The notes below the pieces were generated by a model that saw nothing but the letters and a program-made list of their open reading frames with translations, ran no database searches and was not told the origin of the DNA. A program made the position numbers and the translations under genes. Source: Leucoraja ocellata (taxonomy: Eukaryota). Taken from it: a stretch of 64,000 nucleotides of DNA. The stretch's first letter is position 1. Each line of letters opens with the position of its first letter. Shown here in pieces: positions 7,803-55,199 of this stretch. Where the stretch lies: assembly GCA_036785375.1 (NCBI GenBank), contig JAWMAR010000211.1, positions 3,162,001 to 3,226,000 on the forward strand, in the 5' to 3' direction.

Positions 7803-10786
7803 AACTCAAAGACTGTAGTCATATGTAACTTGGAGGGCAGAGTAGGATGCAACTTCAATACCTTTACAAAGATGATGTCTCACAATGAAGGTGGACTCAC
7901 CTTCTCACCACTTTAGAAGTGATATATCCAGCAAAACATCATCCTCATCATGTCTGATTAGACAGCCTTAAATAGGTCACAATTACCAGTGTACTGCAGG
8001 TATCGTCAAATTTTAATGCTGGATATGTAGCTGCATTTTCCACAGATATATTATGCATTGAAGAGAAATACAACATGAACTGCAAAATTTTCCTTAGTGT
8101 ATAACTTTCTTTGATATCAAATGTAAATAGTGTTTGTAACATCATACCTGATAAAAGGCCAGAACAATAAGAAGATGTGATTTATGATATTTAACTGAAC
8201 CTGATTTATTTCTGTTTAGAAATATTATCAGGAGTTTTATTACACAATCTCTTCATTTGTAATGCTTGTACATTGAGTTTAGCGCCTCGGGACATTGACT
8301 TAATGGATAATACTTCTGCTATTACTTGACATTAAAATTACATGCTGCAATAATGACATTTGAGAGAGACACGTACTCTTGCGAATGTAATCTATGATTT
8401 ATTACCAAACCATAACTTGGTGCAGAAGAATTTCTTATATTTTACACTGCTTAGGAAAGTGTGTGAACTGTTCTTTTTATATGAATATCAAATTATGGAA
8501 TCTTGATACACTTAGTAAAAAATCTTTACGATTATTGTAATGCCTCCATTTCCGGCACAAAAGTATATTATTTTCAGCATATTGAAGGATATAGCAAATA
8601 CATTTTCTCAAGCGCAGACTTTTATTTTGCCCAAGGCAGCTCTTAATTAGACTATTTATTGCAAATGGCAATGAGAAATTAAACACAACACATGCAGAGT
8701 TTTAGTTTGTTGATTTGGTATGAATTGCAGAAGAGCTGTAGTCCTTAACAAATCATTAACCCAGAGAAACAACCAATTTACAAATTGCTCACATTATATC
8801 ATTTTAAACTCTTTTATTTAGGCTCAGCATGAGAACAGTGACTAATTGATGACAGTGGTGTGCAAAATTATGTTGATCCTGTCAAATTTAGGAAATCAGG
8901 CACAGGGAACCATTAAATAAAAACAAAGTGCTGGAGTAACTCAACGGTCAGGCAACATAATTGTAATAAAAAGGATCTGCAGATGCTGGTTTATGCCAAC
9001 ACAGTGACAAAAAGCTGGAGTAACTCAACGGGTCAGGCAGCATCTCCAGAGACATGGATAGGTGACGTTTTGGGTCAGCACCATTCTTCAGATTAATTGG
9101 AGGAGGGGTGAGAAAGGTGGAAGAGAGGTAGGGGCATTCAAGGTGTGGAAAGTGATAGCTGGCTACAGGTGAGGGGGAACGGGGGTGGGGGAGGTGGGTG
9201 GGGAGGGCGGTGGGGGGTGGAGGGATTGCGGGGGTGGAGGGATCGCGGAGGTGGGGGGGAGGGGGGGGGATCGGTAGGCTGTTGGGGGGGAGGGGGGTGT
9301 GATACATGGATAATCTAAGGCCAGAGATGAAAAGACATAAAGAGTGAGATGAGGAGATAAGGACAGAAGGGGTGTGAAACATGAAAAGGGCTTGTCCATT
9401 GAAGAAAGATGTGCAGTTGGACCATTGCTCATTGGGGTTTAGAAAAATGAAAGGTAATTTTATTGAAACAGGTAAGATTCTGTTGGGGTTTGTGATGGTC
9501 GGTGCTGAGAGATGTTTCTGCTCATGAACTATTTCAGAACAAAAAGTTACCCATTTAAGATGGAAATGGAAATGGAAATGCAAGTGCCATGAATCATTTG
9601 AATCCTCCACTCAAGATAGTTGAAGGCTGTATCATTGAATATACTCACGGCCAAGGTGGACAGATTGTTGGTTTATGAGGAAATGAAGAGTTGTGGGGAA
9701 CTGGCAGGAGGGTGGAGGAGAGGTCTAGGTTAAATCAGGTATCATTGTGTTGTATGATGGAGAAGGCTTGAGAGGCATAAGGTGTAAGGTTGCTTCTCTC
9801 AAGTTCCTATATCTGATCTCTGGGATCAGCTAAGGGCCAGGAGACAGGAACCAGAGACTCAGGGATCAAACTGGGCCAACTCAGTCTGGGGTCTATGTCC
9901 AGATCCAGAACCATATCTAGCTGTCGGCATGTTATTGTATTACACTGAGCAACTATATTATTGGCAAGGGCTGCAATTGTATAATATGGATGCATCACTG
10001 GTTTGCCATTTAACAGTGTGATACAGTACTGATTTAGTTTATTGTCACGTGTACCGAGGTACATTGAAAAGCTTTTGTTGCGTGCTAACCCATCAGCGGA
10101 AAGCTAATACATAATTACAATCAGGCCATTCACAGTGTACAGTTACATGATAATAGGAATAACGTGAGTATTGTTTACTACAAGATAAATCTAGTATAGT
10201 CTGATCAAAGATAGTCCGAAGGTCCCAATGAGTTACTATCGGACCATCTTCCAATCAGTCTTTGCTGGCTTTACCTTGCACTAAAGATTATTCCTTTATC
10301 ATGTATCTACACACTGTAAAATGGATCGATTGTAATCATGTATTGTCTTTCTGCTGACGGGATAGCATGCACCAAAAACTCTTTACTGCACCTCGGTACA
10401 CGTGACAATAAACTAAACTGAACTGAACTGAACTGGATAATAGGCAGAATTTTGCAAAATTCAGATGGTTCTGTGTTTTATTCAGCTCTCAGATTCAGAT
10501 TCAATTTTAATTGTCATTGTCAGTGTACAGTACAGAGACAACGAAATGCATTGCAGAGACAACAAAAGGTTTTATTCATCTGTTTTGTGGGCACTGCTTG
10601 TTTTGATCCATGAAGGCCCTGCTGCATATAGGAACATCACTGAGCATCAGGCTGGCTTGGTTCCGATTGATAATAGTGTTTGCTGTAGAAGGCAAGATGC
10701 TTCCTGGAAATTCTGGGACTGATCTCCGCACCATTGAAGGGATCATCAGCAAGTGCTGCCACCAAAAAGGAAGGTAATATCATGAA

Positions 10787-11703
10787 AGACACAAAATGCT
10801 GGAGTATCTCAGCAGGAAAGGCATCATCTCTGGAGAGAAGGGATGGGTAACGTTTCGGATTGAGACCCTTCTTCAGACTGAGAGTCAGGGGAGGGGGAGA
10901 TACAGAGATAAGGAAGTGTAAGGTGTGAGAACAAGACATCAAAGGGGGTGGAAATCAAAGAAAATTGAGAATAGATCATTGTTAGTTAAATGTAATCGGG
11001 GACAGTCAGAGTGGTGGGAGAACTGGGAACGGGGAGGGATGGAGACAGAGGGAAAGCAAGGGTTACTTGAGGTTAGAGAAGTTAATGTTCATACCGCTGG
11101 GTTGTAAGCTGCCCAAATGAAATATGAGGTGCTGTTCCTTCAATTTGCGCTAGGTCTCACTCTGACAATGGAGGAGGCTCAGGACAGAAAGGTCAGATTG
11201 GGAATGGGAGGGGAAGTTAAAGTGTTTAGCAACCGGGAGATCAGGTAGGTTTAGGCAGACTGAGCTAAACTACTCCTGGTTGGTAGTGTCCATTGTCAGA
11301 GTGAGGGCCAGCGCAAACAATGATCTATTCTGCATTTTCCTTGATCTCCATCCACTTTGATGTTTCGTTCTCACCCCTTACACACCCTTATCTCTGTATA
11401 GTCATAAAGAGTCAGAGAGTGATAAAGTGTGGAAACAAGCCCTTCGGCCCAACTTGCCCACACCTGCCAACATGTCCCAGCTACATTGGTCCCATCTGCC
11501 TGCACTTGGTCCATATCCCTCTAAACCTGTACTATCCATGTACCTGTCTAACTGTTTCTTAAATGTTGGGCTAGTCCTAGCCTCAGCTACCTCCTCTGGC
11601 AGCTTGTTCCATACCCCCACCGCCCTTTACCTTCCTCTCCCCTGACTCTCAGCACTTTGTGTTGATCTTCGGTTTAAACGGGCATCTGTAGTTCCTTCCT
11701 ACA
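10787..11703 (-). mobile_element. Penelope-like element remnant (GIY-YIG C-terminal fragment + pLTR + inverted tail) inserted into a Rex/Babar remnant
   Basis: Direct repeat AATATCATGAAAGACA at 10776-10791 and 11704-11719; hammerhead core on - strand near 10846-10880; itself interrupted by a CR1 3' end at about 11400-11622. Confidence 0.7.
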
Positions 11704-14017: not shown

Positions 14018-14287
14018 TGTAGGACGACTAGTTTCATGGTCGTCTTGTTGAGTCTCATTGTCTGTAACCCGTTTTTCCCTAGCCCACACCTAACAATGGC
14101 CTGTTTCCTTTATCATCGTTACTTTTTTTGCATATTTTGAATTTATTTGTTCTATACAATCTATATATCCATCTATATCTCTCATTTCCTATTCCCCTGA
14201 CTCAGTCTGAAGAAGGGTCTCGACCCGAAATGTTACCTATTCCTTCTCTCCAGAGATGCTGCTAGAGTTACTCCAGCATTTTGTGCC
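14018..14287 (+). mobile_element. Penelope-like pLTR unit with hammerhead motif, TSD-flanked
   Basis: TAATTGTCGGAT(G/T)CTA at 14002-14017 and 14288-14303; CTGAAGAAGGGTCTCGACCCGAAATGTTAC at about 14207-14236. Confidence 0.75.
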
Positions 14288-15124
14288 TAATTGTCGGATT
14301 CTACTGATTTGCTCTAGTGGGCCTGCAACTAAAATATTATCTGTGTTTGATGTAATGGCCCTTCGACCCGCCATTCAGAGTAAATAAGTTTTTAAGCCCA
14401 TGGCTTTAAAAACAATCGTTTATTACTTTTTTTTAAATCCTCATAATCTTCATTGTTTTGCTGCTGGCTGGAAAATCCAGCCAATCAATTTAATATTCTG
14501 ATTTGCACATGTAAATATACATTCTGTTGCCCAGGAATGTTCCCCAATGGGAGCATTTAAACCACCCTAGAGAAAAGGAGCATATATGATGCTTTATTTA
14601 CATTAACTTAAACGGAACTGAACTCCAGCGATGACATGATCCAAATTGAGCAGAATAAGCAGCAGGACATCTCTTCAGCAACTTAAAGTCAGCACTTTCC
14701 ACTGATAGAGTTACTTGAAAATTCATCCCCAAACATTAGCAAATGTCTGACTCTGTTGCCCAAACTGTAGTTGCTGCTTAGAGAAAGAATGAACTATTGC
14801 TCACAACATCAGCCAGATAATCATTACAGCTTATACACAGAAGCTGGAGTCATTCAGCGGGACAGCCAGCATCTTTGGTAGAAGAAATGGGTGATGTTTT
14901 GGGTCGAGACCCTTCTTCAGACGAAGACTAGTTGGCTGGTGGGATAAGATGCATGGTCTATATGCATCTCCTGATCTTGTCCCTTCAGGTCATTATACTT
15001 TCTACAGCTGCTGTATCTAAGTCTTGATGGTTGACTGCTGGGTCTGGCTATTACAATGTTCTGCTTCCACTGGAACTCCTGCAAATCTGGAAAGACTTGC
15101 ATCTCCATGGTCAATGTTAGAAGT

Positions 15125-15955
15125 TACATCAGAGGCTGGTTATCTCAAATTGTTGAATTTATTATTGAGTTCCATGTGCTGCAACATGCCTAGGTAGAAC
15201 ATGAGGTGCCATATTTATGTCTGACAGTGGCTTCATTTGAACAGAGTAAGGAGCCAAAAATAGACACCATGAGCACCAAATGCAGTACAGTAAATTGGAA
15301 GAAGTACAAATGAATTGCTGCTACACCTGGAAATAGTGTGTCTGGTTGATGTAATGATGTAAAGGGAAAGGTGTTATACCAGGTGCTATACAGGTGTGGG
15401 CTCCTATATGTCAGTGAGACCAAACACAGACTGGGCGATCTTTCTCTGAATGCCCAGTCCGCCTTGGCCTAAGTATCTCCCGGTTGTCAGAAATTTTAAC
15501 TCCCCTTCCCATTTCCAGACTGACCTTCCTGTCCTGGGCCTCCTTCCCTCTCAGAGTGAGGCCATGTGCAAATTGGAGGAACAACATCTCATATATTACT
15601 AGGGCAGCTTACACCCCAGCGGTAGGAATATTGAATTCTCTAATTTCAAGTAACCCTTGCATTCCCTCTATCCCTCCCTCCCCATCCTAGTTGTCCTAGT
15701 GTTTCCACTGTCACATCCTTGTAACCCTTCATAGTCACTTCTACCACAGCCAACAATGGGCCATTGTGGGCTTTACCATTCCTTGATGATCTGTTAACAT
15801 CCCTGCTTTGTTCCGGCCTTTTCTTACCTCCAGTTCCCTGCCCGTCTACTTTTGGTCTGAAGAAGGACCTAACCCGAAATGTCACCCATTCGTCATCTCC
15901 AGAGATGCTGCCTAACCCACTGAGTTATACCCACTTCGGTATAAACTGGCATCTT
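15125..15955. mobile_element. Penelope-like element remnant (inverted then forward GIY-YIG/pLTR segments)
   Basis: Degenerate match to the 50894-51640 element (GAGACCAAACACAGACTGGGCGA, AAATTGGAGGAACAACATCTCATATT, pLTR). Confidence 0.6.
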
Positions 15956-16643
15956 TCCTTTCATTGTGAGTGCAGTTCATTCAGTGTGCCCGTTTTGAGG
16001 GAAGGGGCGTGGTATTAAATTCAGGCCTTACCTGATTTAGAATAAAGATGAGCTCACTTTTCCTTATTCAACAAAGCAACTGTACCTCCCAAGTCGGTCA
16101 TCTGCAGACTGGATATAAACTTTTCGATTTCTTTATCAAAGTTAATAAGATGGGGATTCAGTGCCAACATTTGTGGATCACCGCGTATCACCTCCTAGTA
16201 ATCAGAGAACATTCCTTTTATTTATAATCTCTCCCTCTCTTACTACCAAACTAACTATTGACCAATGTCACCAATTACCTTCAATACTGTGCACTCTTAT
16301 TTATTATAATAATACTATTTTCTGAACCTCTGAAATGCCTAATGGTAACCAGTATACAACCATAGATATTTCCCTGTCTACCATGCTCCCATAAAATGTC
16401 AACACAGTTTGGCAGAGCTATCCTTAATATGTCAATGTTTATGCTTTGTGGTTAGTAAAAACCTCTTCAAGTGTTCAGTCATTTCATCACCAATGTTAGA
16501 TGAAAACATGAGTTATATGAGAAAAAAACATACTAGTAAAATGGGAGTTTCTCTACAGCATGGACATCAAGTGATGAAAAATTAAGATTCAATCATCTTA
16601 GAAGTAGGAAGAAATATCTTTAATTGGACATCATTGGACTTTA

Positions 16644-16890
16644 GGGAGGAACTGCTAAATGCTGGTTTAATCCAAAGATAGATACCCAATGCCGGAGTAA
16701 CTCAGCGGGTCAGACAGCATTTCTGGAGAAAATGAATAGGTGACATTTCGGGTCCAGTCCCTTCTTCAGACTTCAGACATTCTTCAGACTCCAGTCTGAA
16801 GACGGATCTCGACCCAAAACGTCACCTAATCCTTTACTCCAGAGATGCTATTTGACCCACTGAGTTACTCCAGCTTTTTGTGTCTATCTT
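16644..16890. mobile_element. Inverted Penelope pLTR pair, 12-13-bp TSD
   Basis: Arms are reverse complements; TCATTGGACTTTA at 16631-16643 and 16890-16902. Confidence 0.8.
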
Positions 16891-17289
16891 CATTGGACTT
16901 TATCTTGCACTAAATGTTGTACTCTTTATCCTCTAAGCCAAGAGCATGATAAGCACAATTGCTATGTCACTAGCAGAAAATGCTAGGGATACTCAACAGA
17001 TCAGGCAGTATCTGAAGAGAGTTGAACAGAGTTAACCATCAAGGTCATTGACTCATTGACTGAACCTTAAAATGTGCCATTTACTGCTTCCCGTTTTGCA
17101 GGCACTGAACCATGAATTGACCCAAACTGCCAACCTTTGCTCAGCATGTTGCAATGATGATCCTAGAGCTCCAAGTAGATGGATTGCTAGATTTCCAGCC
17201 CTCATTGCAGGTCTTCCATAATAGCAGAATTCACAAGGTGCTGAATGATTCCATCAGCTGCCCACAAACTGCATACTATGTCTATCTGT

Positions 17290-19194: not shown

Positions 19195-19805
19195 TCAGTT
19201 CAGTTTAGTTTATTGTCACGTGTACCGAGGTACAGTGAAAAGTTTTTGTTGTGTGCTATCCAGTCAGAAGAAAGACAATAGATATCTGAGCCAGTTACAG
19301 TGTATAGATACATGATATGGGAATAACATTTAGTGCAAGGTAAAGCCAGCAAAGTCCAATCAAGGATAGTCTGAGGGTCGTCAATGAGGTAGATAGTAGT
19401 TCAGCACTGCTCTCTGGTTGTGATACGATGATTCCGCTGCCTGATAACAGCTGGGAAGAAACTGTCCCTGAATCTGGAGGTGTGCATTTTCACACTTCTA
19501 TACCTTTTGCCTGATGGGAGAGGGGAGAAGAGGGACTGGCCAGGGTGCGACTCATCCTTGATTATGCTGTTGGCCTTGCCGAGGCAGCGTGAGGTATAAA
19601 TTGACTCAATAGAAGGGAGGTTGGTTTGTGTGATGGTCTGTACTGCGTCCACAATTTGCTGCAATTTCTTGCGGTTTTGGATGGAGCTGTTCGGAAACCA
19701 AGCCGTGATGCATCCTGATAAAATGCTTTCTACGGGGCATCTGAAGAAGTCTGTGAGAGTTGTAGGGGACATGCCAAACTTCCTAAGCCTTGTAAGGAAG
19801 TAGAG
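19195..19805 (-). mobile_element. Rex1/Babar LINE 3' fragment
   Basis: ORF 19401-19772(-): ESILSGCITAWF..SIIKDESHPGQSLFSPLPSGKRYRS..RFRDSFFPAVIR; 3' UTR ends CACGTGACAATAAAC(TGAAC)n. Confidence 0.85.
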
Positions 19806-20679
19806 GTAGACTAGAGTATAAGCGCTGAGTATCCGTCACTGTGGTGGGCTACAAAGAGGCGAGCAGTACACAGCAGCGTATTTTGCTTGGATCAAGGCTG
19901 AATTCCAGACATGTTAATGGATCTGAATGCTGTATATCAGGTGTGATATTTAAGCAAGAATAAATAATTAACAAAAGAAGCTAGCCTATGCATTGATCTC
20001 CACCCACTGTTGACTCAATATGACAACGATTTCATCAGTATTGTACAGTTACCGCAGCTCTGTTGAGCCATCACTTTTACTGATCTCCTCTCTGTCTTTG
20101 TGCCAAGCACCAAACAAAATCAAAAGCCCATTTTGCCCAATCTGCTTCCTGCAATTGTAAAAGGTCATTAAACATTAGCTTTAATACTGCTGTGCTGGAA
20201 ATACATATTCAGGACATGATTGTGTGTGCCCCATTGGAATTGTGTCCAATAGCTTCTGTGAGATAAATATTTAAAAAAAGGGTCAGAGATAATCTCTGAA
20301 TATTATCTCTGAGGAGGTGGCAACTGAATATTTTAAACTGTTTACTGTTTTGCATAGCTGAATATTAGACAACTTATGCAACATTGAGAACACTTTCTTC
20401 ACCACTTCTGATATTTTCTCTTGATAATTTCCCACTTTTCCCTTCTTAAAATAGTGAGTACACATCAGAAAAGCATTAGCTGCAATGTGGTTTGGGGTTT
20501 AGTGAGGTTTTGAAAGACATTCTGACTCCTTAGTTATTTTGTAGACTTTACTCATGCCGCTTGGAACCTATCTTAACCTGAAAGTTGCCACCATCTCCTG
20601 AGCATCACCTCACCCATCAATACCTCTCAAGCAATTGTTAGAAAAGAAGAAAATCTTCACCTTTCTCTCACTTTCACCT

Positions 20680-23838: not shown

Positions 23839-25344
23839 AAAGTCTTGACTGCACAATGATAGCAAGATATTTGTTCCTTTCCTCAGTTGCTCAGTAGCTG
23901 TTCGGAAGCTGATCTCTGGCAAGCCTCAGTTGGCATTGATCCAAGTGACTGGTATCTTAGTGCCAATATATCAGAGACTATGTCTGTGAAGTGAATGTGC
24001 AACACCTTGGCTGACTTACCAACTTTCTTAACTGTGCCCCAAATCACTTTCAGACATTGGATTTTAATTCTAAGGAATTTGAGGACAAACGGTTGTTCAT
24101 TTTTGAAATCAATTATCATCTGAAGATCCTCTGCGGTATGATGTTAGCACTTTGCCTCTTTGCTGAAATTATAAAATCCTTCTGACAGCTTGTCAGGAAG
24201 CCCTGCTTGAAGTTTGCATCTTTGAAGTATCTGGTCGTCAGTGATATGCAGCAGTTTTTATGTCATTGAAACGCTTGAATATGACAAACCCCACCATAGC
24301 TTAGAATAGAAGTCAACTTGCATTTCCCCAGTGTAAGACTGAGACTGTAAAATGGTAAAGAATGAATCTCATTTATTGATTTAGAATCTGGAAAGAAATG
24401 TTACTTATTCAGCGATTGTAGATGATTACCATCATGCATTTTAGAAAACCTAAAACCATGCAAATGGTTTTGCACAATTTCTGGTGCATGGAATTCATTA
24501 CAAGAAGTTGAGAATGAAATGTGAGATTAAAGAGCCATTTCTCAGGGATTGTAGTGCAGTAAGCCTCGAATATAGCAGACTGGTGACTTCAATGAGCGAT
24601 TCACTTACCCAATGCAAAGTGTAGAAAAATGCTAATGTGTTTATTGGCAAAGCATCAACTCGCACTTTTAACTCGTTTATTGGAGTTATTGATCATGAAT
24701 GACAATTTGACAAATAGGATGCACATGAAATGCCATGGATCACATTTGCAGCATTTTTTGTTAGCTAAGCAGAGGAAATGATAATATTTCATGCCACAAA
24801 TATAATTATCTCCAGCTCCTTCAAGTCAAGAGATTATGACTTTGAAATGATTGTGTGACTGACGAACTGTTGGAGAGCCCCCTAGTGCATTCATCAAAAT
24901 TGATTGAAAGGAAACGTGCTGGATTTTAATGTTTCGGAGAGCATCGGTTTGAGAGACTCTGGGAAGGGATGACTCCCATGAAGTTGAAGACATGTCGGGA
25001 AGCTGAGCCCAGCGTGCAAATTTCCACAGTTAACGGCAGTGGATTAGATTGTCTTCCTTTAACCCTCTTGGGAGAGGTGCGATAACCAATTTCAAAGGGA
25101 TAATCAGTCAATCACAAAGACATGATCCTGGTGTTTGCAGCTTAGAGATGGGTTCATGGATGTCTGAACTCACCTGGAAACTCACCTGGAAAGCAAAGTG
25201 TGAAAACGGCATCAATTTAGAAGGCAATACAAGGCAACTCTGGACAGCTGTACTAATTATCTGCACTGTAGAGCTCTGATCAATCTAATCCACACCAGCA
25301 CTCCTAATGTTGCATTCTTTTGGATGGAGCTCTGATCAATCAGT

Positions 25345-25968
25345 GCATCGAATGTATCCGCTGGTCCAGGTGTGGACTATACCTCGCTGAGACCAAGCGC
25401 AGGCTGGCTGATCATTTTGCTGAACACCTCCACTCAGTCCGCCTAAACCTACCTGATTTCACGGTTGCTAAACACTCTAACTCTCCCTTCCATTCCTCGA
25501 CCTTACTGCCTGGGCCTCCCCCATTGTCAGAGTGAGGCCCAACGCAAATTGGAGGAACAGCTCCTCATATTTCGCTTGGGCATCTTACACCCCAGCGGTA
25601 TGAATATTGACTTCTCTAACTTGCTTTCCCTCTCACTCCATCCCACCCCCTTCCTAATCCTCCAACCAGTCTGACTGTCCCACTTATTACATTTTATTTC
25701 TGTAACCTTCGTTGTCACTATCTCCTTACTAACAATGTCGCAATACTACAATTTCCCTGAATGCATCTCCTTTGATGTCTCATTTTCACACCATACCCAT
25801 CCATATCTCTGTGTCTCCCTCTCCCCTGACTCTCTGTCTGAAGAAGGGTCTTGACGCAAAACATCACCCATTCTTTCTATCCAGAGATGCTGCCTGTCCC
25901 GCTGAGCTATTCCAGCACTTTGTGACTATCTTCAGCGTAAACCAGCATCTGCAGTTCCTTTCTACACA
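25345..25968 (+). mobile_element. Penelope-like element 3' part (GIY-YIG remnant + pLTR)
   Basis: CIRWSRCGLYLAETKRRLADHFAEHL..KLEEQLLIFRLGILHPSGMNIDFS; ends CAGCATCTGCAGTTCCTTTCTACAC. Confidence 0.8.
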
Positions 25969-26640
25969 TCACATTTTCTTTGTTGCCGCTGCAATTTGTC
26001 AACGAGCAAATGTAAAGAAGACAAATTGAAGAGTGCCTGGAGTTCCCTGTAACCTTTGTCCCAGATTCTCTGCTGTTAATCTCATCTTCCCTTTTTGCTC
26101 TTGCTCACGTGCTGTATGAGATGCCTGGTGTAAACCTACCAATCGTTCTTTCTGACATGGAGATTCTCGACCCGAAACGTCACCCATGCCTTCTCTCCAG
26201 AGATGCTGCTTGTCCCGCTGAGTTACTCCAGCATTTTGTGTCTATCTTCAATTTAAACCAGCATCTGCAGTTCTTTCCCACACTACGTATTTGGAGATAT
26301 GGTGTAATGTAGGGTAACAGATAGTCTTGTGGGAAATTAAATACATTAATTTAAGGAACGCTCAGCCTGTGTGAGCCAACCTGATCTTCCGGTTGCTGGA
26401 CACTTTAATTCTCCTTCCCATTCCAACACAGATCTTTCTGTCCTCGGTCTTCTCCATTGTCAGAGTGAGGCTGAACGCAAATTGGAGGAACAGCATCTCA
26501 TAATTTGCTTGGGCAGCTTAGAGCCCAGTGGTATGAATATTGATTTTTCTCACTTCAGGTAGCCCCGGCATTCCCTCTCTCTCAATTGCTCCCCCACCCA
26601 ATTTGCACTAGCTTCTCATTTTCACCCTACAAACAGCTTA

Positions 26641-27065
26641 TGGGCTGGTCCCACTTAGGCTATTTTTAGGCGACTGCTGGCGACTGTCATAGTCGTAGCA
26701 GGTCGCCGAGAAACCAACGACTGGACCCCCCCCTTCGACAAAAAATTAGAAATAAAATCATTACTTTAACAAAGAAAAAACGAAGTCAGCACCGGCGACA
26801 ATCTACGTTAACCTGGCGACAACTATAACAGCACCTACGTCAGGAGAAGTCAAGCTACGCTCATTGGTGTCAAAGCCACAGTTGCCGACTGTCTCCGAAA
26901 ATGTTTCAACATGTTGAAAATCTAGAGGCGACCAGAAAGATGCTACGACTCTTTGGGCGACTGAGGAGACGACTCACGACCACACAGGTGACACCCCGGC
27001 AACCACGTGGCAACAGCCTAGTCGCCTGTAGTCGCCTAAAAATTTGCTTAAGTGGAACAGGCCCA
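26641..27065. mobile_element. PIF/Harbinger-type MITE, subfamily D
   Basis: TIR TGGGCTGGTCCCACTTAGGC / GCTTAAGTGGAACAGGCCCA; perfect TTA TSD (26638-26640, 27066-27068); central palindrome 26903-26920. Confidence 0.85.
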
Positions 27066-27170
27066 TTACAATGGCCTGTTTCCTTTATCATTACTTTTTT
27101 GCATATCTTTCATTCATTGTTCCTTATCTCTCCACATCACCGTCTATATCTCTCGTTTCCCTTATCTCCA

Positions 27171-27210
27171 ACCAGTCTGAAGAAGGGTCTCGACCCGAAA
27201 CGTCACCCAC
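27171..27210 (+). ncRNA. Minimal type I hammerhead ribozyme motif in Penelope pLTR (core intact)
   Basis: CTGAAGA-A-GGGT CTCG ACCC-GAAA-CGTC^: CUGANGA and GAAA boxes, stem II, palindromic ACGT stem III, GUC cleavage triplet (C27204). Confidence 0.7.
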
Positions 27211-28024
27211 TCCTTCTCTCCAGAAATACTGCCTATCCCACTGAGTTACTCCAGCATTTTGTGTCTAAGGTCATAATATTGAGTCGCTGCTAGCAAAACA
27301 CGTTGAACTGAATTGTGAAATGACTCAATGGCCATTTCTGGTTGTCCATCTTTCCCAGGTGTTCTGCGATCTTTGCTCCTGAGACTGAGGGGATGTGTCA
27401 AATACAGTAGAATGATGCGCATTTGTTGTGGATAAGTATAAGACCGAGGCATAGGCAGAATTAAGCTGAGTGCCATTGTCAATTAGATGGGAATAGATGA
27501 TGGATATTATTGGGTGTACCTGCAAGCCAAATTGGAGGGATGAGAGAGCTGCCGGACTGGATTTAAGAGGATCAATTTGTGTGTTGGGATTAGAGATCAA
27601 ATTAGAGGTAAAACCCAGTATGAACCTGAGATGACTACACCTATATTAAATCCGATCCCAGGACAAGAATTTTAAATTTATTTTTGCTTCCCAAACTGTT
27701 TAAGCGTGTCAGGCTAGAGTTGAATAGCCAAGCTCAAAATAAAGTGCTGCATCTGGTGCATTAATTTATAATGAGCCAGCCTGGCACACTTTGACTGGAA
27801 CTGCCAGTTTAAATGGATCCCATTAAAGTGAGCTTGTGTTTCACCTCAGGTTTGAGGTCGATTGTGTTGATTGTGCCATTTCTGCTGTGTTGAGTCCATT
27901 AAAGTTCTCTCAGTATTGAATCAACAAAGTAGACCGCTGGGCTCCTATTGCAAATATCGTAGGAAACCTCCTGCCACATCTTAATTATTTTACTGTGGAT
28001 TGTTTAATGTTTAAAGAGCACCAG

Positions 28025-29941
28025 AAGATAACTAAAAAGACAACACAGGGAGAAAAGATGAGGTACAAAGGTAAGCTAGCCTAGAATATAAAGGAGGATA
28101 GTAAAAGCTTGTTTAGGTATGTGAAGAGGAAAAAAGTAGTTAAGACCAAACTTGGACCCTTGAAGACCGAAAAAGGTGAATTTATTATGGGGAACAAGGA
28201 AATGGCAGATGATTTGAACAGGTACTTTGGATCTGTCTTCACTAAGGAGGACACAAACAATCTTCCTGACATAGTAGTAGCCAGAGGATCTGGGGAGACG
28301 GAGGAACTGAAGGAAATCCACATTAGGCAGGAAATGGTGTTGGATAGACTGATGGGACTGATGGCTGATAAATCCCCAGGGCCTGATGGTCTGCATCCCA
28401 GGGTACTTTAGGAAGTGGCTCTAGAAATCGTGGCTGCATTGGTGATAATTTTCCAACGTTCTATAGACTCAGGATCAGTTCCTGTGGATTGGAGGGTAGC
28501 TAATGTTATTCCACTTTTTAAGAAAGGCAGGGGAGAGAAAACAGGGAATTATAGACCAGTTAGCCTGACATCGGTGGTGGGGAAGATGCTGGAGAATTAT
28601 AAAAGATGAAATAGCCGCACATTTGGATAGCAGTAACAGGATCGGTCCGAGTCAGCATGGATTTACAAAGGGGAAATCATGCTTGACTAATCTTCTGGAA
28701 TTTTTTGAAGATATAACTAGGGAAATGGACAAGGGAGAGCCAGTGGATGTAGTGTACCTGGACATTCAGAAAGCATTTGATAAGGTCCCACATAGGAGAT
28801 TAGTGGGCAAAATTAGGGCACATGGTATTGGGGGTAGAGTGCTGACATGGATAGAAAATTGGTTGGAAGACAGGAAACAAAGAGTAGGGATTAACGGGTC
28901 CTTTTCAGAATGGCAGGCAGTGACTAGTGGGGTACCACAAGGCTCGGTGCTGGGACCGTAGCTATTTACAATGTACATCAATGATTTGGATGAAGGGATT
29001 CAAAGTAACATTAGCAAATTTGCAGATGACACAGAGCTGGGTGGAAGTGTGAACTGTGAGGAGGATGCTATGAGAATGCAGGGTGACCTGAACAGGTTGG
29101 GGGAGTGGGCAGATGCATGGCAGATGAAGTTTAATGTGGGTAAATGTGAGGTTATCCACTTTGGTAGTAAAAACAGGAAGGCAGGTTACTATCTAAATGG
29201 CGTCAAGTTGGAAAAGGGGAAGTACAACGTGATCTGGGGGTCCTTGTTCATCAGTCTATGAAAGTAAGCATACAGGTACAGCAGGCAGTGAAGAAAGTGA
29301 ACTGCATGTTGGCCTTTATAATAAGAGGAGTCAAATGTAGGAGCAAAGAGGTCCTTCTGCAGTTACACAGAGCCCTAGTGAGACCACACCTGGAGTACTG
29401 TGTGCACTTATGGTCCTCTAATTTGAGGAAGGACATTCTTGCTATTCAGGGAGTGCAGCACAGGTTTACAAGGTTAATTCCCGGGATGGCGGGACTGTCA
29501 TATGCTGAGAGAATGGAGCAGCTGGGCTTGTACACTCTGGAGTTTAGAAGGATGAGAGGCGATCTCATTGAAACATATAAGATTGCTAAAGGCTTGGACA
29601 CACTAGAGGCAGGAAACATGTTCCCGATGTTTGGGGAGTCCAGAACCAGGGGCCACAGTTTAAGAATAAGGAGTAAACCATTTAGAACGGAGACGAGGAA
29701 CTTTTTCTCACAGAGAGTTGTGAGTCTGTGGAATTATCTACCTCAGCGGGTGGTGGAGGCAGGTTCTCTGGATGCTTTCAAGAGAGAGTTAGATAGGGTT
29801 CTTAAAAATAGTGGAGTCAGGGGATATGGGGAGAAGGCAGGAATGGGGTACTGATTGTGGATGATCAGCCATGATCACATTAAATGGCGGTGCTGGCTCG
29901 AAGGGCTGAATGGCCTACTCCTGCACCTATTGTCTATTGTC
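28025..29941 (+). mobile_element. CR1/HER1 LINE, 5'-truncated, disrupted ORF2 (reverse transcriptase)
   Basis: KSPGPDGLHPRVL, NYRPVSLTSVVGK, YLDIQKAFDKVPH, GVPQGSVLGP, YINDLD, FADD; stops at 28409-28411 and 28959-28961 plus frameshifts; (CTATTGT)n tail. Confidence 0.95.
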
Positions 29942-31888
29942 TTTTGATTCCGACCTGCAAGATTTTATAGTCTTCAATGTCACAGAGTGATACAGTGTGG
30001 AAACAGGCCCTTCGGCCCAACTTGTCCACATCGGCCAACATGTCCCAGCTTCATTAGTCCCACCTGCCCGTATTTGATCCATATCCGTCCAAATCCATCC
30101 TATCCATGTACCTGTCTAACTGTTTCTTAAATGTTGGGATATCGTATTCGAAGGCATCACAAAATCTGGTAGCTTTGTAGTCTGAATCCTTTCTGCCAAC
30201 TTGGTACGGTGCTCACTATCCAAAATCATTTAATTAGAATCATAGCCACACAGCATGGTAGCAGGCCCTTCAGCCCAACTCGTCCATACCGGCCAAGATG
30301 TCCACCTCAGCTTGTTCCACTTGCTCGAGTTTGACTATATCCCTCTAAAACATTTTCAGCATGGAGAGATTTCCAGCATTGCATGCATGGAGTTTCACTG
30401 CTCAGGTACCAGGAAGAACAGCAATGATGCAGGAAGTCACAGGCTGATTAAAAGTGACTGGTGGATGCACATATGTGGGCATTGGACAATGATGCTGACT
30501 GCCACCATTTCTGGTCTGTTGCACCAGATCCAAATAAAACAGAAAGCAGACTTTTCCAGTGAGAAAGGACGATGATTTTTTAAAAAATCTCCCTTTATAG
30601 AGGTAATAAATCCGGCAGATCTGCTTCATTAACTATTTGTGTTTCCATTGGTAGAATCTGAGTAAATAGCACCTGGAATTAATTGTCAGTGTGGAGGGAT
30701 GTGCAGGGAAATAAACAAAAATGTCTTTTGCAATTTGTTGACACACGGAATGTGAGTTGCTTTTGTGTATTGTTAGTGAAATTAAAACTGGGGTTTAATG
30801 CATCCAATAATTTGAAAATGAAATTATGCTGATTGGGAAACTATGGAAATAATTCCACAGTGGGGAAGAACTCATCAACGGTATGTTTTACAACATTGAC
30901 AAGACATTAAGGTTCCATTGACTTACGGAATATAGTGTAAAGGTACAGAATACCATAGAGTCTATTCTTGTATACGGAAAATATTTTATTTAAGTAGATT
31001 GCGTGGCAAGGCATTGGCAATCAGGCTGCTTTGCAATATAATGTTGCAATGCCGTTTTGTTCTGTAATTCATCACTTGGTAGAATCTGGATTGCCATCTG
31101 GCAATTGCCAAACACAGGCAACGATCCTCCCCAAGAGATGAGGAAAAAATTAGAAGGTGAATCACCTTGTTCTTGCACTTCCTGTTAACCAGTTAATTGA
31201 TGCTAAAAATCTGGCAAAATGCCCACGTCTATGCTTACAGAGTGGAAAGTGATAGATGAGAGGAAAAGTGGCTAATGACATTATATATTTCAGTTTTAAA
31301 GTGTATTTATATGGAAGCTTTGTCTCAGGAACACATTTTTCCCAGCTGTTATCAGGCAAAAGAGCGGTCCTCTCGGCAGCTGCAGTGGAGTCGTTACTCC
31401 CATCTACCTGATTTGGGTAGGAATGTTACAAAATTTTGAGATTTTTAAATTAAACCCTGTAATTTATCCCATAAGATAAAGCATAAAAAGAACGTTAATT
31501 TCACACCTAATTCACTTTCATATCTTCAGTATTAAAATAATTATGGTCATTTTCATACTCGGAAATTAGCATCTTGTTCCCTATTGCTTTTCCATTAATT
31601 GAACACAAAAGCTCTTATCGAGGACAGTCAATTGACATAAAAGCCCATAACTTTGTTAAAAATTAAGTGAACTGAATGAAATTTTCAATTATAGATTGAA
31701 ACATTCTGAAACAAATATGGTACATCTTACCTGGATAGCCTGAAATTAAAGTATATAATTAGTTAATTACCTAATTAGGTAGCTAATTACAAAATTAACC
31801 GTTGTGACAGAAATAGTAATAAACACCCAGACTGCCTTGAAAATTCAAAAATGTGATATTCTCAAGATCAAAACTTTAATATTATTGT

Positions 31889-32150
31889 GTTTAAGAAGGA
31901 ACTGCAGATGCTGGAAAATCGATTGGTACACAAAAATGCTGGAGAAACTCAGCGGGTGCAGCAGCATCTATGGAGAGAAGGAAATAGGCAACGTTTCAGG
32001 CCGAAACCCATCTTCAGACGGAGCAAAGGAATTGGGCAATGTTTCGGGCTGAAACGTCTGAAGAAGAGTTTTGGCCCGAAACGTTGCCTATTTCCTTTGC
32101 TCCATAGATGCTGCTGCACCCGCTGAGTTTCTCCAGCACTTTTGTGTACC
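31889..32150. mobile_element. Inverted Penelope pLTR pair, 14-bp TSD
   Basis: TTTAATATTATTGT at 31875-31888 and 32151-32164; inverted arms, each with a hammerhead-like core. Confidence 0.85.
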
Positions 32151-32499
32151 TTTAATATTATTGTAATGTTAAAACAAATAGTAAATACCCAACAAAAAAA
32201 TAATCTTCATCAGTGTCATAAAGTCAATTAAACTCATCTAAATTTAATTACTAGATCTAAACATCTATCCCATTCTTAAGAAAAGGCTAAAAAAAAAATT
32301 TAAATAGCCAAAGTATCTAAATAACAAACTGATCCCATTCACACAAGAATTCACAATATAACATGATTTTTAAATCCCTCTTTGTCAAGAATTGCTATGC
32401 CAAATCAAAGGAATTGAAGGTTTAATCCCCATAAATTTTACTCTGTTGGTTTATAACACTGCAGCAGGCAAGGGCCATTTTACACAGACATCTGTTCAA

Positions 32500-32792
32500 A
32501 ATCCACAAACATCCACTCTCAAGATAATCAAAATCCTTATTCTTTGCACAATCATGTCATGAACATCTGAATGATCTATATGTTGTGTAATTGTCTATAT
32601 ATGATCAATATTTTCATACTAAATATCTGACAAAAACTATGTACTGTGGAAGTTTTTTGTCAGATATTTAGTATGAAAATATTGATCATGGATAGACAAT
32701 AACACACAATATAGATAATTTAGATATTCTTATGACATGATTGTGCAAAAAATAATGAATTTGATTATCTTGAGAGTGGATGTTTGTGGATT
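32500..32792. repeat. About 140-bp-arm inverted repeat (hairpin) with 12-nt spacer
   Basis: 32500-32638 vs 32651-32792; the innermost ~36 bp are perfectly complementary. Confidence 0.9.
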
Positions 32793-33522
32793 AAGATACA
32801 GAGATCGGATTGTTGCCGCCGCCATGATTTTGCGCAGTCACACGCAAGACAGGGCTGGTACGGGGCCTAAATAACATATTTTGCATCATCAGATTAAAAT
32901 GAAATTACACCAAAAACTAGATAGGATGTTAAATAAACGCCCGACAGAACATACCTTTTGCTTTGTCCTGAACTTGCGATCCGTGATTTTTAAGGCATTT
33001 TAATCTGATGATTTTCAACCAGCGATTCAATAGTTAAACAACATTTTTAAAAAACCACGAACGAGATCACAGAACAAAATTTCCTCATAAAGCTTGTTTT
33101 AATAGGAAATCCCTCCCTGACAACCAATAAAAACCTGCATTTTACTAACCCAATCCCACAACCTCTCGAGTCGCATGCACAGGCAGTGAGCAGATCAAGA
33201 GCACCACTGATGGCAGGAATTTGTAACAACACTAATTGGAGACCTCCGAACTATTATTAATCAGACTTTATCGGACTTCAATGTTCGATGATGCATAAAT
33301 TTTGCACCCTTGATTCTTTATCTGCGCACTGTGGATGACTTGATTGTATCCAGGTATTCTTTTCTTTGACTGGATAGCACGCAAACAAAAGTTTTTCTCT
33401 GTACCTCAGTACACGTGACAATAATAAACTAAGCCAAACTAAACCAAACCAAACCAAACCTAAGTGAAGTGAAGTGAAGTGAACCAAGCAAGGTGGAATG
33501 TTTTTGGTGCTTTACCCTACTG

Positions 33523-35885: not shown

Positions 35886-36040
35886 TTACTATGCTCACTT
35901 GCTGCCGATAACTGTCTTCCTTACCGATCACCATATCTTCAAGATTGGTGCCTCTTGCTAATTTTGAAATTTTCCTCACATTCACATAACCCCAACATAT
36001 TAATACATATTGACTCTTGAAGTACAACTAATAATAGAAA

Positions 36041-36345
36041 TGTTTAGGAAGGAACTGCAGGTGCTGGTTTCTTCCTAAGATTGACATACAAAGCTGGAGT
36101 AACTCTGCGGGTCAGACAGCATCTCTGGAGAGAAGGGATAGGTGAAGTTTCGGGTCAAGACTCCTCGTCAGACTGAGAGTCAGTGGAAAGGGAAACTAGA
36201 GATATAGACGGTGATATAGAGAGATATAAAACAAATGAATGAAAGATATGCAAAAAAGTAACGATGATAAAGGCTATTGTTAGCTGTTGTCTAAGTGAAA
36301 AAGAGTTATGGACAATGAGACTCCACAAGACGACTGCAGCTATTG
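36041..36345 (-). mobile_element. Penelope pLTR
   Basis: AGGAAGGAACTGCAG start; hammerhead-like core on - strand near 36141-36175. Confidence 0.7.
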
Positions 36346-36354
36346 CAACCCTGG

Positions 36355-37125
36355 ATGGGGGAGGGTACCATTGACTATCAGAGGGGACTGTGTGGAGAGG
36401 GTGGCGGATTTCCGCTTCCTGGGAATCCATATTGAGGAGGACCTGACATGGAGCGTGAACACCACTGCGCTGCTGAAAAAGGTCCAGCAGAGACTGCACT
36501 TCCTGAGGGTGCTCAGGAAGAATAACATCACTCAGAGACTGCTGCTGTCCTTTTATCGGTGCTCCATTGAGAGCATACTAACCTACTGTGTATGCGTGTG
36601 GTACACCAGCTGCACAGCGGCTCAGAGGAAAGCGCTCCAGAGGTCCATTGACAACGCCCAGAGGATTGTCGGCTGCCCTCTCCTTACCTTGGAGGACTTA
36701 CACAGTTCCCGCTGCATCAAAAAATCCCAGAGTATTATAAAGGACATTTTCCACCCCGAACACTCCCTGTTTGAACTGTTGCCGTCAGGCAGACGGTACA
36801 GATCTACAAGGACAAGGACGGACAGACTAAAAAACAGTTTTTACCCCACTGCTATTAAAGCACTAAATGTAGCCGCCAAGGAACGCAGGGTTGATACATA
36901 CTAAGGGACTGTGGTACACTATGAAATCGACAGAAGGATGGAGGGTTGGGAGTTTATGCGTGCTATTTTCATGATATTTATTTTAGTTGTTTATCTTTTA
37001 ATATTTTATCTTGTATGTATCGTTAGCTTTTAGAAATGTTTGAATGGTGCACTGACTGGCTGACATTTTTAATTTTCGTTGTACATGGTTCATGTTACAA
37101 TGACAATAAAGAAACTATTCTATTC
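36355..37125 (+). mobile_element. Rex1/Babar LINE 3' fragment (open ORF2 C-terminus)
   Basis: VERVADFRFLGIHIEEDLTW..QQRLHFLRVL..FYRCSIESILTY..HPEHSLFELLPSGRRYRS..RLKNSFYPTAI; tail TGACAATAAAG..(CTATT)n. Confidence 0.9.
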
Positions 37126-38424: not shown

Positions 38425-38577
<153 letters not shown>

Positions 38578-38703: not shown

Positions 38704-38709
38704 ATTAAA
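38704..38709 (+). promoter_or_regulatory. Candidate polyadenylation signal ATTAAA (alternatives: AATAAA near 39838 and 40008)
   Basis: First canonical-type hexamer after the DNTT stop; no transcript evidence. Confidence 0.3.
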
Positions 38710-45935: not shown

Positions 45936-46007
45936 AAATTCTAAATGCAAAACGATATTAATAAAATCCAAATGTCTTAAGGTAGAACAGAAGGCCTGTT
46001 TATCACT

Positions 46008-46166
46008 AGGTAGACAAAAATGTTGGAGAACCTCAGTGGGTGAGGCAGCATCTATGGAGCAAATGAAATAGGCAACGTTTCGGGTCGAAACCCTTCTTCA
46101 GACTGAGTTTCTACAGTATTTTTGTCTACCTTCGATTTTCCAGCATCTGCAGTTCCTTCTTAAACA
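46008..46166. mobile_element. Inverted Penelope pLTR pair, ~12-bp TSD
   Basis: CTGT(T/A)TATCACT at 45996-46007 and 46169-46180. Confidence 0.75.
46071..46105 (-). ncRNA. Minimal hammerhead ribozyme motif (core intact, UUCG loop II)
   Basis: Minus strand reads CAGT-CTGAAGA-A-GGGT TTCG ACCC-GAAA-CGTT-GCC. Confidence 0.65.
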
Positions 46167-48065
46167 GTCTGTATATCACTGCATGTTTATACATTGACTC
46201 ATATAACTCACTATTCTGGAAGTAGTAGAAATTGGATACTATCGTGTTGGCCATCATTTTACTGACCTGATACATTCCTAGTTCTGTCATTGGCATCGTT
46301 GCATTTTATAGGTTACAGCTGTCCCAATCTTCCCTCCTCCCAGCTGTGTAAAAAAAGTCATGTAAGATGATATATCAGCAATTCCGATAGTCAGTGTTGA
46401 CTTCAAAAGGCCTGTCTCATTGTCCTCTCCCTAAGGCATACTTAAGATCGACTGTCAGCTGGCAAATTCAAATGTGATTTCTCCCATCTAGCAAGTTGCC
46501 TGAGGAGGAGTGATGGGGGCGGGAGTGCTTTCCCATCTTCATAGATGAAGCCTGAACAATTCATTGGGTTCGCGCTCCAGGTTTCAAGGTACAAGCCGCG
46601 ATGTAGCATCGAGTCAGAAATGAGCCAAAGCGAAAAGCTATTCATTACAGTAAAGTACCTAAGTCTTCACAAATGAATATTTATGAAACTGCAGCCCAGT
46701 CTATAAATACTTTAAAGCCTTTCAATAGAAAAATCACAATGTGTAAATTCTGCTCAACTATAGTTGCCAATAAATAGGAGAATACCTTGAGACATCTCAC
46801 AAAGGTATTGAAAGTGGAAAGCGATATTTTATCAAACATTTCCTCTTAAAAAGGGACCAGCCCTCATATGCCGGTTAGGATGATGAAATCATAACCTACT
46901 TACTCTCCCTTTCTCTTTCTTTTCATCTTACTTTCTTTCTGTTTCTCTATCTAGCTTATTATGCCTTTTTTCTGCACGGCCAAACATTATTTTCCTTGTT
47001 TGACTTAAGAATAAAATGTCTGTAAAACCTAAAATGAACAATGGACAGACCCAAAATGCTGGAGTAACTCAGCGAGACAGGCAGCAACTCTGGAGAATAT
47101 TGATGTTTCGGGTTGGGACCCTGAATTATAATAAATTTGCAGCATAAAAATAATTATAACAAATGCAAATATCAAATAGTTTCTTTTTCACAATTTCAGA
47201 ATCTAGACATAGTGTAACTTCATCATTGATTTTTCTGTTCAATTGTTTTCATCTTTGTGACTTTCACACCATTTTACATGTATTTTTCATCTTCTGGCCT
47301 GCAAGAATTTTTAAAGCATTACAGTAATATCTTCATCATGTTTGTCAATTTTTAATTTCTTAGAGTCCAAATTAGAATTGTGCTACAAAACTTTATCTTG
47401 GATTCAAGGTGGAAATAAATCTACTGGGCAAAGTGGGTCAGAGCAGATTTTTGACACTTCACTCTCCAATTCCCATAAATTATCTAAATTCTAATTAAAT
47501 TGAGTGTTCTTATAATAGTTTTAAGGAAAGAGTATGGTAACCAAAAGTATCTAAGTAGAACATTATAATTAACAGCAAACAGCAACTTTCCCCATCAACC
47601 CAGTTCTTTCCCACAGATAATACACGGGTATCTATCACAGATCATACAACACATTTTATCTGATGAAAGGAAACACTGCAATCATTTTTCACTGTCTCCT
47701 CAATTTCAGGCTATGTGTCAAAAAATCAATGGCCCAAATATTGACCCAGAGGCGAAAATCTCTGGCTGAAAGCCAACATTTTTGCTTTCCACCATGTGGT
47801 ATATTTTGCATTGTCATTGCAGTCGTTGCAATTGCATTATCATTGTTTTAATCTCATGAGCCACAGTTTTCCCAGTGTCTTTAATGTGGCACTTTCTCAA
47901 CAAACATTTGCTCAGCCTAGGTGACCAATTTACAGAGCACTTGCATGCAAAAGCAATTGAGATTTCCCCGTTGCATGCCAGTTCAATTCCCCGACCACCT
48001 GCCGCTATCTCCAAACTCTGTTCCTCTTCCGCCATTACTCAGCTCCATCATCCATCTTGGCATCT

Positions 48066-50596: not shown

Positions 50597-51640
50597 TAGA
50601 AAGGAAAAAGGAGGAGGAGGAGGAGCCCGAGGGCTGAGGATGGGAGGAGACAGCAAGGGCTAACAAAATTGGGAGAATTCAATGTTCATGCCCGCAGGAT
50701 GCATACCCCGCAACACTGCTCTCTCTCCCCATCCCCCCACTCGCAACAAGGGCAGAGTCCCCCTAGTCCTCACCTTTCACCCCACCAGCCGTTACATACA
50801 ACAATACATACCGTCACATACATACATATCCTCCGTCAGTTTTGCCACCTCTAACGTGACCCCACCACTCGCCACATCTTCCCATCTCCCCCCATGTCTG
50901 CCTTCCACAAAGACCGCTACCTCCGTAACTCCCTTGTCAATTCTTCCCTTCCCTCCCGTACCACCCCCTCCCCGGGCACTTTCCGTTGCAACCGCAAGAG
51001 ATGCAACACTTGTCCCTTTACCTCCTCCCTCGACTCCATTCAAGGACCCAAACAGTCGTTCCAGGTGCGACAGAGGTTCACCTGCATCTCCTCCAACCTT
51101 ATCTATTGCATCCGCTACTCTAGATGTCAGCTGATCTATATCGGTGAGACCAAGCGGAGGCTTGGCAATCGTTTTGCCGAACACCTCCGCTCGGTCCGCA
51201 ATAACCAACCTGACCTCCCGGTGGATCAGCACTTCAACTCCCCCTCCCATTCTCCATGCAACCTCTCTGTCTTGGGTCTCCTCCATGGCCAGAGTGAGCA
51301 ACACTGGAAATTGGAGGAACAGCACCTCATATTCCGCTTCAGTAGTCTGCATCCTGCGGGCATGAACATTGAATTCTCCCAATTTTGTTAGCCCTTGCTG
51401 TCTCCTCCCCTTCCTCAGCCCTCGGGCTGTCTCCTCCCATCCCTCAGCCCTCGGGCTCCTCCTCCTCCTTCTTCCTTTCTTCTCCCCGCACCCCCCCCCA
51501 TACTCCATCAGTCTGAAGAAGGGTTTTGGCCCAAAACGTTGCCTATTTCCTTCGCTCCATAGATGCTGCTGCACCCGCTGAGTTTCTCCAGCATTTTTGT
51601 GTACCTTCGATTTTCCAGCATCTGCAGTTCCTTCTTATTC
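50597..51640 (+). mobile_element. Penelope-like element: 5' inverted segment + GIY-YIG endonuclease remnant + pLTR
   Basis: ORF 50894-51391: CNRKRCNTC..NLIYCIRYSRCQLIYIGETKRRLGNRFAEH..HFN..KLEEQHLIF..GMNIEF; 50597-50704 is an inverted copy of about 51348-51480. Confidence 0.9.
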
Positions 51641-52660
51641 ACTGTAAAGATCCTGACATGGTTTGACTTTCCAAAATACAACACCTCACATTGATCTGCA
51701 CAGCTGATCAAGACCATGCTATAATTTTTGATAACCATCTTCACTGTTGATAATACCCCCTACTTTAGTGTCATATGAAACCATACCATTATTGCTTTGT
51801 ACATCCTCATCCAAACCATTGATGAGAAACAATTTTCCTCCACCATCTTCTGCTTCCTTCCATGAAGATAACTCTAGATCCAGTCAGCTATCTCTTCCTG
51901 GATAGTATGCAGTCTAACCTTCCAGAGCAGTCCACCATGTGGTACCTTACAAAAGGCCTTGCTGAAGTCCAAGAAGACAACGTCTACGGCCTTGGTCTCA
52001 TCAACCTTCTTGGTTACTTCTTCAAAAACTCAAGCAAATTCATGAGACATGATCTCCCATGTACAAAACCATGCTGAATATCCATAGTCAGCCTCCTGTT
52101 TATCCAAGTGTATATATATATCTTATCCCTCAACATTATATCCAGTAACTTACCTGCTACATATGGTAAGTTATAGTTCCCAGGCTTTTCCCAGTTTCCC
52201 TTCTTAAATAGAGGCACAACGGCAGCCACTCTCTGGTCATCTGGCACCTGTCTTTAATGATGAATCATATATCTCTGCCAAGGTTCCTGCATTTTTCTAT
52301 CTTGCTTCCTACAGTGTCCTTAGATGTATCTGACCAGGCCCAGGAGAGTTATTTAACTTCATACATCTTAGTACATCCTGCACTTCCTTGACCACAACAT
52401 GAACTGTCCTAAAGACATTTCCATTATCTGTCCAAAATCCCCCAGTCTTCATGTCCACGGTCAAAGCAGAGGAGAAATACTATTTAGGACCTTGCCAATA
52501 TCCTATAGCTCCACACATACATAACCACTTTGGTTTCTGAGAGAGCCTATTCTTTCTGTCGCTCTTCTCCATGATGTACATAAAACATCTATAGATTTTC
52601 CTTAATCTTATCTGCCAGAGCTATGTCCTTCCCCATTTTTACCCTCCTGATTTCCTTCCA
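51640..52660 (-). mobile_element. Old CR1 LINE RT fragment
   Basis: VVPLFKKGNWEKPGNY..IQHGFVHGRSCLMNLLEF. Confidence 0.75.
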
Positions 52661-55183: not shown

Positions 55184-55199
55184 TTATCATTATATTTAA

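Follow-up and report, generated by a model that had tools for sequence, protein, structure and literature searches.

This locus raises the question of whether a hammerhead ribozyme motif carried by a transposon remnant, lying in the sense direction upstream of a DNTT (TdT)-like exon, would cut the pre-mRNA of its host gene. A preliminary description of the window (the whole 64,000-nt stretch of Leucoraja ocellata DNA analysed here) had assigned the motif at 27177 to the minimal type I hammerheads of Penelope-like elements (PLEs) and had proposed that dispersed + strand copies pair within one pre-mRNA and cut it. The assignment is borne out by a consensus match, GIY-YIG endonuclease ends upstream, the loci of relatives and covariation. 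The proposed cutting is not: we hold it very probable that 27177 is a PLE-family 3'-end minimal hammerhead within a truncated insertion, that its core is likely intact by chance, and that it would not cut host RNA usefully.

On the + strand, 27177-27204 reads CTGAAGA-A-GGGT-CTCG-ACCC-GAAA-CG-TC, as had been described, with C27204 at position 17; in the context 27172-27210 the motif is preceded by CCAGT and followed by ACCCAC. The minimal type I hammerhead motif (27175..27206, +) matches the min-HHR consensus in the supplement of PMC4209133 and comprises a 2-bp helix I (27175-76 with 27205-06), the CUGAAGA box (27177-83), an extra A (27184) between positions 9 and 10.1, a 4-bp helix II (27185-88 with 27193-96; G10.1-C11.1 = G27185-C27196) and the GAAA box (27197-200), followed by a palindromic CG and then UC. 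An ACGU palindrome occupies 27200-27203, where CG is the majority state of the family, and no stable helix III is present; the cut site is predicted after C27204. The covariance-model scan for hammerheads proposed in the preliminary description was performed with Rfam, which returned 0 matches at the gathering score across the whole window and 17 matches, no hammerhead among them, when 25000-33000 was searched to E 10; the sub-threshold matches at an inverted pair of copies were chance miRNA-like hairpins only. A canonical type I hammerhead, as described by the Rfam models (helix I of ~6 bp, loop contacts), was rejected on the 2-bp helix I and the lack of gathering-score matches, and a longer helix I, sought by eye and by folding, was not found in the window family.

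The pattern CTGANGA...GAAA occurs 20 times in the window (6.5 +/- 2.4 in shuffled sequence; 0 of 100 shuffles reach 20), and a family profile made from 18 copies detects 34 fragments across the 64 kb and 0 in 5 shuffled windows. The motif forms the head of a repeat of ~150 nt. In family context, 19 copies can be aligned to the 28-nt motif allowing at most 6 substitutions, and the strict pattern of the preliminary description is matched exactly in only two of them (27177+ and 46101-). Both core boxes and UH are kept in eight of the 19 (14207+, 27177+, 32058+, 10876-, 16769-, 32017-, 36171-, 46101-), among them all six cores previously listed as intact or near-intact; 32017- and 36171- had been overlooked. 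In four of these eight (27177+, 10876-, 32017-, 46101-) helix II is also paired throughout and the CG palindrome retained, and helix I measures 2 bp (GU/AC or GU/GC) in 15/19.

The copies are dispersed or inverted, and none of 44 tandem-repeat rows in the window belongs to the hammerhead family. Single copies with intact core boxes lie at 14184..14340 (+; core at 14207, with UG in place of the CG palindrome) and 36030..36199 (-; core at 36171-, palindrome lost), and a 5'-truncated copy at 26159..26287 (+) has no CUGANGA and keeps GAAACGUC. Inverted arrangements are found at 16629..16912, which joins 16769- (core boxes intact, 3/4 helix II pairs) to 16796+ (G12A), at 31877..32159, a head-to-head pair of 32017- and 32058+ that belongs to a second subfamily and would form a long hairpin whichever strand is transcribed, and at 45963..46170, where the intact motif 46101- is accompanied by an inverted partial copy. 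The second subfamily (51513+, 32058+, 32017-, 46101-) has GUU as its cleavage triplet and U-G pairs in both helices, and is probably younger, given its mutual identity of 89-96%. Scanning metagenome and viral contigs with the exact pattern gave 0 matches in each.

These copies are the 3' ends of a PLE. The longest PLE fragment (50681..51651, +) holds a broken ORF end with a Cx4CxxC linker and a GIY-YIG domain, followed by a dead motif at 51513 (G12A). Its open stretch 50855-51391 (+) encodes the linker (CNRKRCNTC) and the GIY-YIG domain, which Pfam recognises at E 4.4e-4, below the gathering score; its Atlas matches score 0.96-0.97, with GIY-YIG on 13-56% of members. The nearest longer relatives are from Mobula (64%), Rhincodon (60%) and Chiloscyllium (56%), in keeping with a cartilaginous-fish host, a 982-aa relative at 37% carries both RT and GIY-YIG, and Cx2-5CxxC linker equivalents are present in 4/4 relatives. 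The window contains no RT core of the PLE ORF: the longest fragment begins at residue 223 of a relative (P0023) whose RVT_1 match spans residues 1-121. In tblastn, six matches in the window reach the C-terminus of the 50855 ORF. Five have the motif 3' on the same strand, about 125-215 nt away (10876-, 15857+, 25838+, 51513+, 27177+), and the sixth is a short inverted piece. Besides the longest fragment, such ends include 10741..11275 (-; GIY-YIG end 11275-11069, intact motif 10876-), 15359..15969 (+; GIY-YIG end, motif 15857 with core boxes kept and helix II broken) and a second 3' fragment near 27177 at 25347..25976 (+; GIY-YIG end, dead motif at 25838 with G12A and CG -> CA).

The PLE copy that contains 27177 is preserved in two parts. 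A 5'-truncated 3' fragment of the GIY-YIG ORF lies at 26359..26559 (+; 68% to the 50855 ORF by tblastn, across 66 aa, and 57-65% to chondrichthyan PLE proteins), and the 3' non-coding end (pLTR region), shortened at its 3' end, lies at 27069..27268 (+; 77-81% identical to 14093-14290 and 36083-36273). Between them a MITE-like element of 425 nt (26641..27065), which has terminal inverted repeats and has duplicated a TTA target, has split the copy; from the duplication we take it to be of PIF/Harbinger type. Because of this insertion 27177 lies 621 nt from the endonuclease end, and once the MITE and the duplication (428 nt) are removed the spacing is 193 nt, as at 10876-. Ends related to this MITE occur at 3553, 41268 and 55177, and relatives of the MITE-like family lie near 1234-1752, 3239-3553, 40494-41268 and 54530-55187. 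Other elements in the window include LINE-type fragments at 28569-29854 (+), 39056-39727 (-), 36299-36904 (+) and 19401-19835 (-), with an RVT_1 match at 28569 and an ALKBH8_N Pfam match at 36299, probably a LINE-derived stretch; at 42444-43520 an assembly gap of 291 N lies between the two copies of a 173-nt direct repeat (80% identical), next to a GA-rich tract.

Several family copies stand as head-to-head inverted pairs, as PLE insertions typically do (PMC8557442). EN+ PLEs are described as truncated and inverted and as carrying a hammerhead at the 3' side, and among them the Cx2-5CxxC linker marks the Neptune and Nematis clades (PMC8557442); by its linker alone the element would be placed as Neptune/Nematis-type.

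For an independent comparison, 80 loci with relatives of the endonuclease were collected from metagenome contigs; almost all come from a single data set and apparently represent one family, with best matches at 44-53% identity. Of the 44 loci that were usable (ORF end present and at least 200 nt after it), 40 have the same motif in the sense direction no more than 300 nt past the ORF end, and none has it in antisense. A covariation alignment of 10 rows was picked from intact copies (5 from the window and 5 from related loci). All 60 of its 60 helix cells are paired, against 0-47% in slid controls, and three of the six helix pairs are changed on both sides between the two families, with compensatory changes at helix I pair 2 (G-C -> C-G) and helix II pair 4 (U-A -> C-G); because two families are compared, this covariation represents few independent events in the alignment. 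All catalytic positions are common to the window family and its distant relative. From the pairing and the double changes across two families, it follows that the 2-bp helix I is part of the design. In one related-PLE locus (L039, minus strand, position 209 of the reverse complement) there is a different minimal hammerhead, whose helix I has 6 bp.

Damage to the copies was then assessed by position. CpG positions had changed in 36/141 cases and other positions in 165/1444; judged by these counts, CpG decay is the chief damage to the copies. The loss of G12 through such decay had been proposed before and is seen at 1779, 16796 and 51513, with G12 -> A in 8/18 aligned copies overall. The divergence of 27177 3' of the cut site is 11.7%, and that of other copies 5-26%. 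Non-CpG differences are fewer in the core (4/180) than elsewhere (161/1264; p = 2e-6), counted in copies that had been chosen for a recognisable core, and we read this as selection on active source elements together with the choice of copies by core. Some of the low core mismatch may reflect selection after insertion, a contribution we discount because private mutations do not differ significantly between the core (4/180) and elsewhere (52/1264; p = 0.30); that G12 is freely lost likewise argues against it.

The assignment of 27177 to a DNTT intron was examined from the 3' end of the gene. The last coding exon of a DNTT (TdT)-like gene (38491..38577, +; 28 codons, behind a NAGNAG acceptor) matches the TdT C-terminus with 38 bits to TdT chains and 27 to polymerase mu, and 27177 is sense to and upstream of it. 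The tandem NAGNAG acceptor (38485-38493) could yield isoforms with or without one glutamine, an ATTAAA that might serve as poly(A) signal follows the exon at 38704-38709, and the copy 46101- is situated past the DNTT stop codon. Neither tblastn with 20 relatives, several of them full-length (20 of 22 proteins, P0001 and P0002 having been dropped for repeat-like matches), nor a short-motif search found other DNTT exons in the window, and an LGWTGS match at 18655 was rejected as an exon, being the reverse strand of a repeat copy. The earlier placement of 27177 in the last DNTT intron therefore holds as to the exon downstream on the + strand, but the penultimate exon is absent from 1-38490 by tblastn and the intron is presumed. 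If the gene is contiguous, its last intron would plausibly exceed 38 kb and contain 24 of the 34 fragments.

Orientation within this region is balanced, with 11 sense and 13 antisense fragments in 1-38490 (p = 0.84). The depletion of intact sense copies expected under the preliminary description was not seen in 1-38490: among copies covering the core, core boxes are intact in 4/7 sense and 4/9 antisense (p = 1.0), a test on 7 + 9 copies with very low power, too small to detect a modest bias.

Folding was used to estimate whether 27177 could adopt the hammerhead state. In the predicted fold CUGAAGAAGGGU pairs with its own 3' flank and buries the core, the probability of helix II is at most 0.01, and the hammerhead-compatible state lies 8-9 kcal/mol above the ensemble, energies that leave out tertiary contacts and chaperones. 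Monomers of the related family are penalised too (6.0-8.5 kcal/mol), though their predicted folds retain helices I and II, so the penalty of 27177 is partly a feature of the class. Pairing of the core and the 5' strand of helix II with the 3' flank (the 27177-27222 region) is predicted in 10/18 copies, and might serve the monomer as a built-in off state.

Since the core of one copy cuts its partner in a dimer, cleavage at C27204 requires the core of another sense copy. G12A rules out 25838 and 16796 as partners, 26159 has no CUGANGA, and helix II is broken in 15857, whose dimer calculation with 27177 was discarded because a 1-nt deletion shifts the register. The core at 32058 has a helix II mismatch and is held in a hairpin with its inverted twin 32017 (31877..32159; -49.8 kcal/mol, z -6.0; ddG 37-39 kcal/mol with flanks), and dimers with it carry a predicted penalty of 33-64 kcal/mol. 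The only plausible sense partner on these models is 14207, 12,970 nt upstream, for which helix III would include a wobble; even when a 20-nt linker stands in for the 13 kb, the 14207/27177 dimer is predicted to lie 16.9 kcal/mol above the free ensemble. With the buried core and the 32058 hairpin, this penalty speaks against the claim that dispersed + copies pair within one pre-mRNA and cut it. In published experiments a single min-HHR was uncleaved and dimers and trimers were weakly cleaved in vitro (PMC4209133), and in a zebrafish intron three full monomeric hammerheads lowered mRNA less than 3-fold, a fast engineered ribozyme being the only one to reach a 20-fold cut (PMC11856399). Cleavage of DNTT pre-mRNA at 27177 is thus predicted to be unlikely.

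How, then, would the motif act? On the model drawn from the literature, an active element would have two pLTR motifs in tandem, whose ACGU palindromes would join as helix III; each core would cleave the other motif after H17 and in this way free the element RNA from a longer transcript. Reverse transcription would start at the 3' end and often yield 5'-truncated or inverted insertions, so that most copies left behind would consist of the pLTR only and later decay. In a solo copy such as 27177, helix III would be missing, helix I would span 2 bp and a hairpin of the core with the 3' flank would compete, and we predict for these reasons that DNTT pre-mRNA is spliced uncut.

Four other readings were weighed against this one. 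It is exceedingly unlikely that sense copies in the last DNTT intron, or a PLE transcript in trans, dimerise and cut TdT pre-mRNA after C27204, lowering TdT output: the perfect core of 27177 runs in the same direction as the DNTT-like exon, 14207+ keeps its core boxes and could form all 10 dimer pairs (one as a wobble), a very long intron would be long-lived, and the fast engineered ribozyme in a zebrafish intron had a 20-fold effect (PMC11856399), but a junction with 4 bp in helix III and 2 bp in helix I would have to hold the two copies together, and both the dimer penalties for 14207 and 32058 and the modest effect of zebrafish monomers and of min-HHR dimers in vitro (PMC11856399; PMC4209133) count against it, as do the balanced strand counts, the similar retention of core boxes in the two orientations and the upstream exon absent from the window. 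Equally improbable is that the min-HHRs dispersed through very long introns form a latent cleavage network, in which 27177 would be cut once a second core is supplied by the intron or by a de-repressed PLE in trans; if true, it would tie transposon activity to the loss of host pre-mRNAs such as TdT.

The two remaining readings deny the motif a ribozyme role in the host or altogether. It is very unlikely that any effect of the 27177 copy on DNTT RNA would come from use as a cryptic 3' splice site, though a pyrimidine tract with a CAG end stands one base before the CUGA box (27153-27176), an AG occurs there in 11/18 copies, seven of which, including 27177+ and 14207+, have it behind at least 13/17 pyrimidines, and in D. 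virilis Penelope the 5' end of helix I is where an intron terminates (PMC4209133); no AG stands at the equivalent place in the related family, and 27177 has lost the branch-point-like CTGAC stretch present in other copies. Equivalents of this splice-like tract, often with CTGAC, are seen at 14207+, 10876-, 18477-, 36171-, 51513+ and 59576+, and through splicing the active element might gain a longer helix I. We give scarcely any credence to the motif being merely hammerhead-like, a protein-binding or promoter element of the pLTR that never cleaves even in active elements. The 2-bp helix I would suit such an element, as would the predicted pairing of the core with the 3' flank, the lack of an Rfam hammerhead match in the searches above and published statements that the role of such motifs is unproven (PMC4209133, PMC8557442); yet catalytic positions are all common to a distant family while both helices covary, and related min-HHRs cleave in vitro as dimers (PMC4209133; PMC6765202). 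The reading of 27177 as the minimal hammerhead of a truncated PLE end is preferred to all four.

Dimer cleavage by such motifs is reportedly the title claim of Lunse et al. 2017. The finding adds a cartilaginous-fish family to a motif class described in 2014. In that year Cervera and De la Pena described PLE min-HHRs, present as solo copies in their thousands per genome, together with the model of dimer action (PMC4209133), and further background is given in PMC6155905 and PMC11167929. No description of the window family from cartilaginous fish was found in the searchable literature, beyond which lie most subscription papers and repeat databases, and supplement file 2 of PMC4209133 returned no cartilaginous fish under the terms searched. 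With 34 fragments in 64 kb there is about one PLE end every 2 kb, so that the motifs form a dense background and intronic location alone carries no weight. If dispersed copies cut host pre-mRNA, a transposon remnant would shape TdT expression, and with it antigen-receptor junctional diversity, and intron-wide selection on repeat orientation would be expected; nothing found here points toward such cutting.

Among known systems, the closest likeness is to the PLE min-HHRs (PMC4209133), which share CUGANGAH, the G10.1-C11.1 pair, the extra nucleotide after position 9, GAAA-palindrome-UH without a loop 3, a short helix I (2-bp examples stand in the Culex, Drosophila and Oikopleura rows of the supplement), the location at PLE 3' ends and the predominance of solo copies genome-wide; the window family differs in a 4-bp helix II, at the short end of the range, and in a core often predicted to pair with its 3' flank. 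With Neptune/Nematis EN+ PLEs it shares the C-terminal GIY-YIG after Cx2-5CxxC, 5' truncation, inverted junctions and a near-3' hammerhead (PMC8557442), whereas the window has no RT domain and the clade is the one suggested by the linker. Non-LTR retrozymes likewise carry type I hammerheads of PLE origin, and PLE-derived retrozymes are reported from one chondrichthyan genome and as under-represented in Xenopus introns (10.64898/2026.07.22.740005). That under-representation is one published hint toward the sense-cutting model, and concerns tandem retrozymes and apparently not orientation (10.64898/2026.07.22.740005). Retrozymes of this kind are head-to-tail tandem repeats, whereas the window copies form no tandem array. 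The RECK-type human hammerheads and the CPEB3 ribozyme are single conserved loci that fold as monomers. What 27177 has in common with these domesticated intronic ribozymes is a motif of a self-cleaving class set in the sense direction, in its case within a presumed intron (RECK-type, PMC6155905; CPEB3, HDV-like); unlike them, it is one of many decaying copies of a repeat and has no helix III alone.
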